DNA of 227 bases from Escherichia coli (GTDB lineage: Bacteria; Pseudomonadota; Gammaproteobacteria; Enterobacterales; Enterobacteriaceae), in the NCBI RefSeq assembly GCF_003334335.1, contig NZ_QOWQ01000235.1. One strand, 5' to 3'. The position numbers and the translations under genes are program-made. Of this stretch, positions 1 through 227 are shown one piece after another. The notes below the pieces were generated by a model, which was not told the DNA's origin, searched no databases, and was given only the letters and a program-made list of their open reading frames with translations. Position 1 is the first letter of the stretch, and every line of letters begins with the position of its first letter.

Positions 1-58
1 CTAGTGCGGCAATAATGTATGTTCCGATGCTGTAAATTTCCCCGGGTACCAGCCTTCC
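1..58 (-). other. Start of a non-collagenous C-terminal segment ([19 protein letters not shown]...) immediately after the last Gly-X-Y triplet; continues beyond window position 1.
   Basis: Gly periodicity is lost after G57 (next Gly are at residues 62 and 68). Composition switches to hydrophobic/aromatic residues (I, Y, L, A, V), and local GC falls from about 67% (positions 41-227) to about 40% (positions 1-40) by hand count. Confidence 0.55.
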
Positions 59-227
59 GGTTGGCCCTTGTGGTCCCTGTGGTCCGGGTTCACCTGTCGG
101 GCCCTGTGGACCTGTCGGGCCCTGTCTTCCTGTTTCTCCCTGCAAACCTCGTGGCCCCGTTTTACCCGCAGGACCTGCCGGACCAACCGGCCCCGGAACA
201 CCCTGTGCCCCCGCTGGTCCCCTTTCA
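1..227 (-). CDS. Partial CDS (both ends outside the window) for a collagen-like triple-helix repeat protein; reading frame has codons at window 226..224, 223..221, ... 4..2. No start or stop codon in the window.
   Basis: Hand translation of the reverse complement gives 75 codons with no stop. Gly occupies every third position for 19 consecutive positions (G3 to G57), giving 18 complete G-X-Y triplets, then periodicity ends at [19 protein letters not shown]. The truncated upstream codon ends in T, compatible with GGT (Gly), so the repeat probably continues beyond position 227. Such strict 3-residue Gly periodicity is not expected by chance. Confidence 0.8.
56..227 (-). repeat. Collagen-like Gly-X-Y coding repeat region (protein-level repeat, period 9 nt), probably continuing past the window edge at 227.
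   Basis: Triplets in order: [54 protein letters not shown], then a 19th Gly. X is Pro in 11 of 18 triplets; Y is Gln 6, Thr 5, Ala 3, Pro 2, Val 1, Arg 1. The + strand here is strongly C/T-rich, as expected for the antisense of GGN-CCN-NNN codons. Confidence 0.8.
93..125. repeat. Perfect 15-bp direct repeat (cctgtcgggccctgt on the + strand) at 93-107 and 111-125, separated by 3 bp (period 18 nt), lying inside the collagen-like CDS.
   Basis: Read directly from the sequence. On the coding (minus) strand the unit is cagggcccgacaggt, encoding Q-G-P-T-G twice within [12 protein letters not shown]. Confidence 0.85.

Follow-up and report, generated by a model that had tools for sequence, protein, structure and literature searches.

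The stretch of DNA considered here (hereafter the window, 227 nucleotides (nt) in its full length) very probably belongs to the tail fibre gene of a temperate Escherichia coli phage or prophage, with the EPclC architecture of the collagen-like proteins of E. coli prophages and in the position that the side tail fibre gene (stf) occupies in lambda-like genomes. Of the six translated frames only one, frame 1 of the reverse complement (minus strand), is free of stop codons from one end of the window to the other; it corresponds, by identity to phage PhiR5_1, to codons 373-447, plus a partial codon at each end, of a 523-codon gene (window 1-227, minus strand). Nineteen uninterrupted Gly-X-Y triplets are encoded at window positions 50-220 (minus strand), and a 20th (G|ER, 221-227) is cut by the window edge. 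As judged from the triplet count and the Pfam Collagen family (PF01391), they are the last 19 of the 39 triplets of the second collagen domain, Col2 (amino acids (aa) 375-431), and would form the end of the distal fibre rod. The 16 residues that directly follow the triplet run (aa 432-447; window 2-49, minus strand) are the start of a non-collagen C-terminal domain, the head, delimited by the collagen boundary and with no described family, which is presumed to be the trimerisation and receptor-binding tip; only these 16 of its 92 residues fall within the window.

The repeat is not an artefact of base composition, since the longest Gly-X-Y run found in any frame of 2000 base shuffles of the window was of 6 triplets (mean, 2.25). 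Pro occupies 11 of the 19 X positions (58%), and the Y positions are mostly taken by Gln, Thr and Ala, so that the preferences at X and Y already resemble the published fingerprint of the E. coli prophage collagens more than the Gram-positive one. The G + C content of the window (62.6%) is high as a codon effect, the collagen-coding DNA being at 61-73% and that of the head at 47%. At window 92-126 (minus strand) TRF detected a unit of 18 nt that is duplicated in tandem and in frame (1.9 copies, 94% match) and encodes GPTGPQ / GPTGEP. The sole entry of the mechanical list of open reading frames (ORFs), a 66-aa ORF in minus frame 2, was discarded as an out-of-frame by-product of the stop-poor GGN/CCN repeat, and no Rfam family was matched by either strand of the window. 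The initial annotation had proposed a fibre gene with a collagen stalk and a C-terminal head, which the 19 triplets and the non-collagen residues after them bear out, and had held that the window alone could not resolve the biological system to which the gene belongs. Context was indeed needed, but the window is not entirely uninformative, the X and Y preferences and the full-length database match described below already pointing to a phage.

In a blastn search of the phage collection all 227 nt were found to be 100% identical to Escherichia phage PhiR5_1 (PV340545.1 46807-47033, equivalent to L001 20001-20227), a genome of 50,981 bp with E. coli C as the listed host, and four sister phages of PhiR5_1 match the window at 99.1%. 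Copies with 100% identity are also present in four complete E. coli chromosomes, chromosomal each time and never on plasmids; therefore, an integrated prophage may be as likely a source of the window as a virion genome. No paper on the PhiR phages was found under the phage names or accession numbers, and their origin from ECOR strains is a guess from the phage names and listed hosts.

The full-length fibre protein encoded by PhiR5_1 consists of well-defined modules. The N-terminal phage_tail_N domain (PfN, PF08400; aa 1-134, E 2.5e-42, over the full model length) is followed by a short helical segment rich in Ala and by a first collagen domain, Col1 (aa 136-256, 121 residues), in which 19 and 21 triplets are counted on the two sides of one GDPGGPPG break (aa 190-197). 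The Phage_fiber_2 repeat (Pf2, PF03406; aa 263-304, E 8.7e-16) and a short Ala-rich stretch of the protein sequence (aa about 296-313) separate Col1 from Col2 (aa 315-431, 117 residues, 39 triplets by count), and the head (aa 432-523, 92 residues) starts where the collagen ends. The Collagen family PF01391 is also matched by the whole fibre protein, and among the PHROGs it falls in tail fibre families (best match phrog_366, E 5e-123). PfN is 53% identical, over 131 residues, to residues 1-131 of the lambda side tail fibre protein Stf (orf-401), of which residues 339-390 are the counterpart of the Pf2 region (56% identity). Furthermore, aa 1-91 match chain Ta, 'Tail fiber protein', of PDB entries 9E7M/9MGH (phmmer E 2e-30), in which the collar domain of the Ur-lambda side fibre has been solved, a chain that on checking turned out to be residues 1-91 of lambda Stf (orf-401) itself. 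In all 78 triplets, Pro (51%) and Asp/Glu (23%) prevail at X, and Ala (27%), Lys/Arg (22%), Thr (17%), Gln (14%) and Pro (13%) at Y; a length of approximately 34 nm is calculated for each collagen rod at 0.286 nm per residue.

Collagen stalks are also found in bacterial surface adhesins of the Scl/Lcl type and in exosporium nap proteins of the BclA type, and the possibility that a gene of this sort lies near phage genes by chance must be considered, although the evidence leaves it next to no likelihood. The NCBIfam SclB, SclA and Lcl models and a BclA PDB chain do match the fibre, almost wholly in the Gly-X-Y and Ala-rich regions. However, the NCBIfam scores (146, 131 and 117 bits, respectively) are far from the curated cut-offs of 325, 400 and 500 bits, and the BclA match is restricted to aa 327-402 and does not involve a C1q-like head. 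On inspection of the protein sequence no LPXTG motif, signal-peptide-like (hydrophobic) N-terminus or other export signal was found, and the N-terminus is the phage PfN domain instead. Thr at Y is at 17% in the fibre versus the 48% of Gram-positive collagens (PMC3368898). The genes found within 20 kb are phage morphogenesis genes, with no sporulation, exosporium, glycosyltransferase, rhamnose, sortase or secretion gene among them. Finally, E. coli does not sporulate, which counts against an exosporium protein. A PADLOC defence-system scan of the fibre protein, of the chaperone-type protein encoded downstream and of the adhesin encoded after it gave no matches.

The system to which the gene belongs is made clear by its surroundings. 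In PhiR5_1 the fibre gene (L001 18886-20457, 523 codons) lies at the end of a complete lambda-type head and tail block, immediately downstream of the tail morphogenesis genes and in their orientation, in the order terminase A-W-portal B-C/Nu3-D-E-FI-FII-Z-U-V-G-T-tape measure H-M-L-K-I-J-lom-fibre, followed by a 192-codon gene annotated as encoding a 'tail fiber assembly protein'. The J protein is 65% identical to lambda J over the full length, and the order J-lom-fibre-assembly gene is that of lambda J-lom-stf-tfa; the fibre gene thus occupies the stf slot of lambda-like genomes. A lambda-like context also surrounds two chromosomal prophage copies, those of E. coli S1-CAM-02-A (L003) and SW070917 (L007). 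In phage PhiR5_2 (L002) and in E. coli DETEC-S792 (L006) the same distal fibre is carried by a 933W-like module (N4-gp56-type capsid, structural proteins and fibre) with the gene order and gene sizes of phage 933W. As the initial annotation had anticipated, the system could, therefore, be assigned from the neighbouring genes: with H-M-L-K-I-J-lom before the fibre gene and a tail-fibre chaperone-type gene after it, a lambda-like phage is indicated. Of the four possibilities it had listed, the flanking genes (tape measure, tail tip and fibre assembly) single out the first, a phage tail fibre, while the spore, surface adhesin and giant-virus options fail for want of spore, glycosylation or rhamnose genes, a signal peptide, an LPXTG motif or a C1q-like head. 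Its caution that no novel system should be claimed without context was also well placed, what is found being a published architecture, that of EPclC, in the stf slot.

The gene immediately downstream (L001 20477-21055, 192 codons) starts 20 nt past the fibre stop codon, and its product contains a DUF4376 domain (PF14301; aa 72-182, E 7.9e-20). DUF4376 proteins have been described as tail fibre chaperones in Alteromonas phages, and in Campylobacter CJIE1 prophages the fibre is functional only when the downstream DUF4376 gene is co-expressed; in the model proposed for these chaperones the variable N-terminus binds the fibre tip and the C-terminal DUF4376 part is conserved (PMC10579305, PMC7882524). 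On the basis of this domain and of this literature the downstream gene probably encodes the fibre chaperone. The distribution of its two parts fits the model: the first third of the gene (approximately 80 codons) co-occurs only with the head, in 28 genomes, each head having its chaperone gene as a partner, whereas the DUF4376 part alone is present, with 83-88% identity, in about 110 further genomes, two plasmid copies included. The last 4 nt of the DUF4376 gene are also part of a 55-codon ORF (L001 21052-21219), which belongs to no PHROG family.

In lambda-like and 933W-like prophages alike, the fibre and DUF4376 genes are always followed by a gene for a trimeric autotransporter adhesin with a YadA anchor and similarity to EibD (L001 21851-22924, L002 7683-8942, L003 10843-12108, L006 10863-11978, L007 10851-11924; PDB matches 2lme, E 1.7e-18, and 2xzr EibD, E 7e-8). 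The trio seemingly travels as a single cassette, and does so between long-tailed lambda-like and short-tailed 933W-like phages; a parallel is P-EibA, an Eib-encoding prophage in the list of Ghosh et al. (PMC3368898). In E. coli S1-CAM-02-A a gene for an S6-family peptidase (an autotransporter protease of the SPATE type; L003 12941-16948) lies between the adhesin gene and a DinI-like gene at the prophage end, and represents a virulence-type cargo next to the fibre cassette.

Such company raises the question of whether the collagen-like protein could be a lysogenic-conversion factor, namely, a collagen mimic made by the prophage to act on the animal host in adhesion or immune evasion rather than a part of the virion. 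The adhesin gene of the cassette and, in one prophage, the protease gene too are in line with this idea, as is the presence just upstream of the fibre gene of lom, which encodes an outer membrane protein expressed in lysogens. However, the N-terminus of the protein is the virion-docking collar of lambda Stf, with no export signal, the gene comes downstream of same-strand tail genes and is followed by a fibre chaperone-type gene, and the homologous protein of the Stx2 phage Sp5, of the EPclB type, is located on the tail, as seen by immuno-electron microscopy labelling at the tail ends, and is essential for infection, as judged from plaque formation (PMC5155283). With these data a lysogenic-conversion role in place of a virion one is very unlikely, and the tail fibre assignment is retained.

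The head is the least familiar part of the protein. No Pfam or NCBIfam family is assigned to it, the fibre protein yields no match to PF06820 (PfC, the C-terminal domain of other EPcl proteins) even at E<=10, and nothing below E 0.1 was retrieved from the PDB; in the PHROGs only one weak match (phrog_17472, E 2.7e-4) was obtained. In the same Pfam scan the 933W fibre, which served as a positive control, gave PF06820 at E 8.4e-35. A distant kinship with PfC had been considered, as BLAST alignments ran a few residues past the collagen end, and was ruled out by the hhalign comparison of the head with PfC (probability 0.1%). Among 50,697 phage records only the eight PhiR phages contain the head. 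In a word-indexed search of 5.8 billion sequences all matches were from E. coli, at least 91% identical and partial except for one 65-aa protein; an exhaustive phmmer search of 1.84 billion representatives returned again E. coli sequences, at least 91% identical, along with six weak matches to large repeat proteins. The latter were set aside as uninformative, the two that were retrieved being repetitive: P0018 matched through a short 'IKDxNGN...GxDGN' likeness, and P0015 has no significant Pfam domain. At the DNA level the head was found in 28 of 5,426 complete E. coli genomes (0.5%), in 86 places (median, 3 per carrier genome), and these 86 copies are at least 95.7% identical, with no more-diverged copy emerging even in the sensitive mode. 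When the head and four triplets were modelled as a monomer with AlphaFold2, on a very shallow alignment, the result was unusable (mean pLDDT 41, pTM 0.32).

Given where it lies in the protein and what PfC does in EPclA, the head would be both the trimerisation nucleus and the receptor-binding tip. It is possible, though doubtful at present, that it represents a domain for receptor binding and trimerisation that has not been described before and has its own fold; if so, it would be a new host-range determinant for temperate phages carrying virulence genes. Some features of its variants are recorded here. Cys 472 and Cys 504, beyond the window (L001 about 20299 and 20395), are invariant in all aligned variants, and the few polymorphic sites cluster at aa 447-451, 465, 474 and 478-479; they may be receptor contacts, but the data are too thin to say. 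In the metagenome fragments P0002, P0004 and P0005 the head is preceded, on its N-terminal side, by unrelated sequence, and the join falls precisely on the collagen/head boundary. In P0005 the first 57 residues of the DUF4376 chaperone are present, fused to the head at a common 'GEI' tripeptide; the junction corresponds to 6 nt shared in PhiR5_1, seemingly short for an assembly chimera. Either an artefact or a real rearrangement may be at its origin.

Comparison of alleles shows that the length of the stalk varies. One PfN and one head are common to proteins of 287, 426, 499, 520 and 523 aa, and a 653-aa version carries this head on a 933W-type anchor. The insertions and deletions (indels) within the collagen domains involve 3, 3, 18, 24 and 24 residues, all multiples of three, so that the triplet register is kept, and through a deletion of 233 residues Col1 runs straight into the end of Col2. 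Three deletions have endpoints in the span covered by the window: one of aa 396-419, the 233-aa deletion, which ends at aa 409, and one of aa 420-422. Exchange of whole modules is also suggested: up to about residue 170, in its N-terminal anchor and its coiled coil, the PhiR5_2 fibre is closely similar to that of 933W, and from the end of PfN onward it is 79% identical (358/456) to the PhiR5_1 fibre, being identical or nearly so through Pf2, Col2 and head. Thus, the collagen-coding repeat appears to be both an adjustable spacer and a substrate on which recombination can exchange the distal modules of different phage types.

The same variability could be read as decay, with the gene being a non-functional relic kept only by recombination in its repeats, like the frameshifted stf of laboratory lambda, whose side fibres are dispensable (PMC12617516). 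The alleles with large deletions (287 and 426 aa) would agree with this reading, and several frame-disrupted EPclA genes are listed by Ghosh et al. (PMC3368898). It is, however, unlikely, as the reading frame runs uninterrupted through 523 codons in a phage listed as grown on E. coli C, and also in the 520-aa and 499-aa chromosomal alleles, the collagen indels preserve the triplet register, and the head DNA is conserved over all its copies and accompanied in every case by the chaperone gene.

Some irregularities of the surrounding genes deserve mention. The annotation of PhiR5_1 divides the tape measure gene H into two adjacent coding sequences (L001 9426-11759 and 11759-11998), which may reflect a true split, a frameshift or an error of sequencing. 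In E. coli SW070917 genes for a Mu-type transposase and regulators adjoin the lambda-like tail genes (L007 1-920 and 2003 onward), and no tail genes upstream of K are annotated in the stretch that was fetched, an arrangement that would fit the insertion of a Mu-like element in this prophage. In the 933W-like prophage of E. coli DETEC-S792 an IS200C transposase gene (L006 2349-2807) is found within the head-gene block, between a 2145-nt gene, of the size of the 933W portal gene, and a 1008-nt gene that precedes the major capsid gene.

Taking these observations together, a working scheme for the tail fibre can be proposed. The PfN collar would dock the fibre on the tail tip region, as the homologous part of lambda Stf does. 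Three chains would trimerise, and by analogy with EPclA the two Gly-X-Y domains would fold as triple helices of approximately 34 nm each. These collagen rods would take the place that the alpha-helical coiled-coil shaft has in lambda Stf, with the lambda anchor and the Pf2 repeat beside the hinge being kept. The head would nucleate trimerisation and chain registration, helped by the DUF4376 chaperone, and would then bind a receptor on the E. coli surface, speeding or enabling adsorption. At the DNA level, the stop-free and self-similar collagen repeat would allow in-register deletions and duplications that change the fibre length, and recombination by which the stalk-head-chaperone cassette of one phage type passes to another.

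No evidence contradicts the tail fibre assignment, and the fibre is of an already known kind, in a class described in 2012, rather than a new system. Several points, nevertheless, weigh against the scheme or parts of it. The PhiR5_1 gene is deposited in GenBank merely as encoding a 'hypothetical protein'. The head has no relatives of known function, and receptor binding is, therefore, assigned to it from its position only; the AlphaFold2 model, as said, is of no help. The downstream protein has no detectable relation to lambda Tfa (BLASTP E 0.063), nor detectable kin among solved chaperones or structures. For this fibre, the triple helix, trimerisation by the head, presence in the virion and receptor binding are extrapolated from relatives. 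Finally, with the lambda side fibres being dispensable, the fibre may add little on laboratory hosts (PMC12617516).

The significance of these findings is slight apart from a better annotation, in that the PhiR5_1 'hypothetical protein' can now be named a collagen-like (EPclC-type) side tail fibre. The head and the variable N-terminus of its DUF4376 partner constitute an uncharacterised host-recognition module common to lambda-like and 933W-like temperate phages, and the phages with the head module also carry adhesin and autotransporter genes. The one unexplored element is the family-less head with its receptor, knowledge of which would help to predict the E. coli strains that can be reached by phages carrying virulence genes.

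The known systems with which the fibre may be compared differ greatly in how much they share with it. The likeness to Bacillus anthracis BclA is in shape only, namely, a collagen stalk with a globular domain for trimerisation at its C-terminal end; the BclA head is C1q/TNF-like, its GPT repeats are rich in Thr, its host forms spores and glycosylation genes are found nearby, none of which applies to the fibre described here. Lambda Stf (orf-401/orf-314) is much closer. The collar domain of lambda contacts gpV and gpM, and Ur-lambda has four trimeric side fibres, which bind OmpC and speed adsorption and are built of the collar, a linker, a proximal coiled coil (102-393), a hinge (394-422) and a distal part (PMC12617516). 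The present gene occupies the same slot after J and lom, with homologous collar and Pf2 and with a small assembly-type gene immediately downstream, and its product follows the same logic of anchor, proximal rod, hinge region, distal rod and tip. However, the rods of lambda Stf are Ala/Ser-rich alpha-helical coiled coils and its distal domain is an OmpC-binding one similar to T4 gp37, whereas collagen rods and an unrelated 92-aa tip are found here; beyond Pf2 no similarity to lambda orf-401 was detected in the search for a T4 gp37-like distal region, a comparison made with orf-401 and not directly with orf-314, the gene for the distal portion of Ur-lambda Stf. Similarly, the downstream gene encodes a DUF4376 protein, without detectable Tfa similarity, instead of lambda Tfa.

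The collagen-like proteins of E. coli prophages (EPcl) offer the closest parallels. Their modules (PfN, PCoil, Col, Pf2 and PfC) are combined into four architectures, and the lack of PfC homology at the C-terminus sets EPclC and EPclD apart from EPclA and EPclB; EPclA forms dumbbell-shaped trimers that contain a true collagen triple helix (Tm 42 C), the refolding of which is nucleated by the trimerising C-terminal domain, the biochemistry of that study covering EPclA and EPclB only and not EPclC (Ghosh et al. 2012, PMC3368898). The EPclB fibres of 933W and Sp5 (Z1483, L0121 and ECs1228 = ORF67) have the same Col-Pf2-Col layout, with about 53% identity in this part, and it is exactly on the 933W-type anchor that the head of the window is carried in PhiR5_2 and in E. 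coli DETEC-S792. On the other hand, the 933W protein has another variant of the N-terminal anchor, a PCoil of approximately 110 residues and the PfC head that the protein of the window lacks, and its gene is followed by a small PfC-containing ORF in place of a DUF4376 gene.

In EPclC proteins PfN is followed by two Col domains separated by Pf2, usually without PCoil, Col1 commonly contains a G-x-P-G-G-P-x-G break, and the C-terminus is unrelated to PfC; ECED1_2081 of strain ED1a and ORF-401 of prophage P-EibA are examples (PMC3368898). All the traits that were compared are found in the present fibre: the prophage location, PfN, two Col domains around Pf2, the break in Col1, the absence of a long PCoil and a non-PfC C-terminus. 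The preferences published for the prophage group, EPclP (Pro about 48% at X; Ala, Thr, Gln and Lys/Arg at Y, with little Pro at Y; Table 4 of PMC3368898), are matched by the fibre, which differs in this respect from Gram-positive collagens. The head may be the same as the C-terminus of ECED1_2081 and of P-EibA ORF-401, as judged from matching sizes only. Indeed, the allele of E. coli S1-CAM-02-A, with 520 aa and Col domains of 118 and 117 residues, reproduces the figures listed for ECED1_2081 (PMC3368898), and P-EibA likewise has an Eib/YadA-type adhesin gene downstream of its fibre gene.

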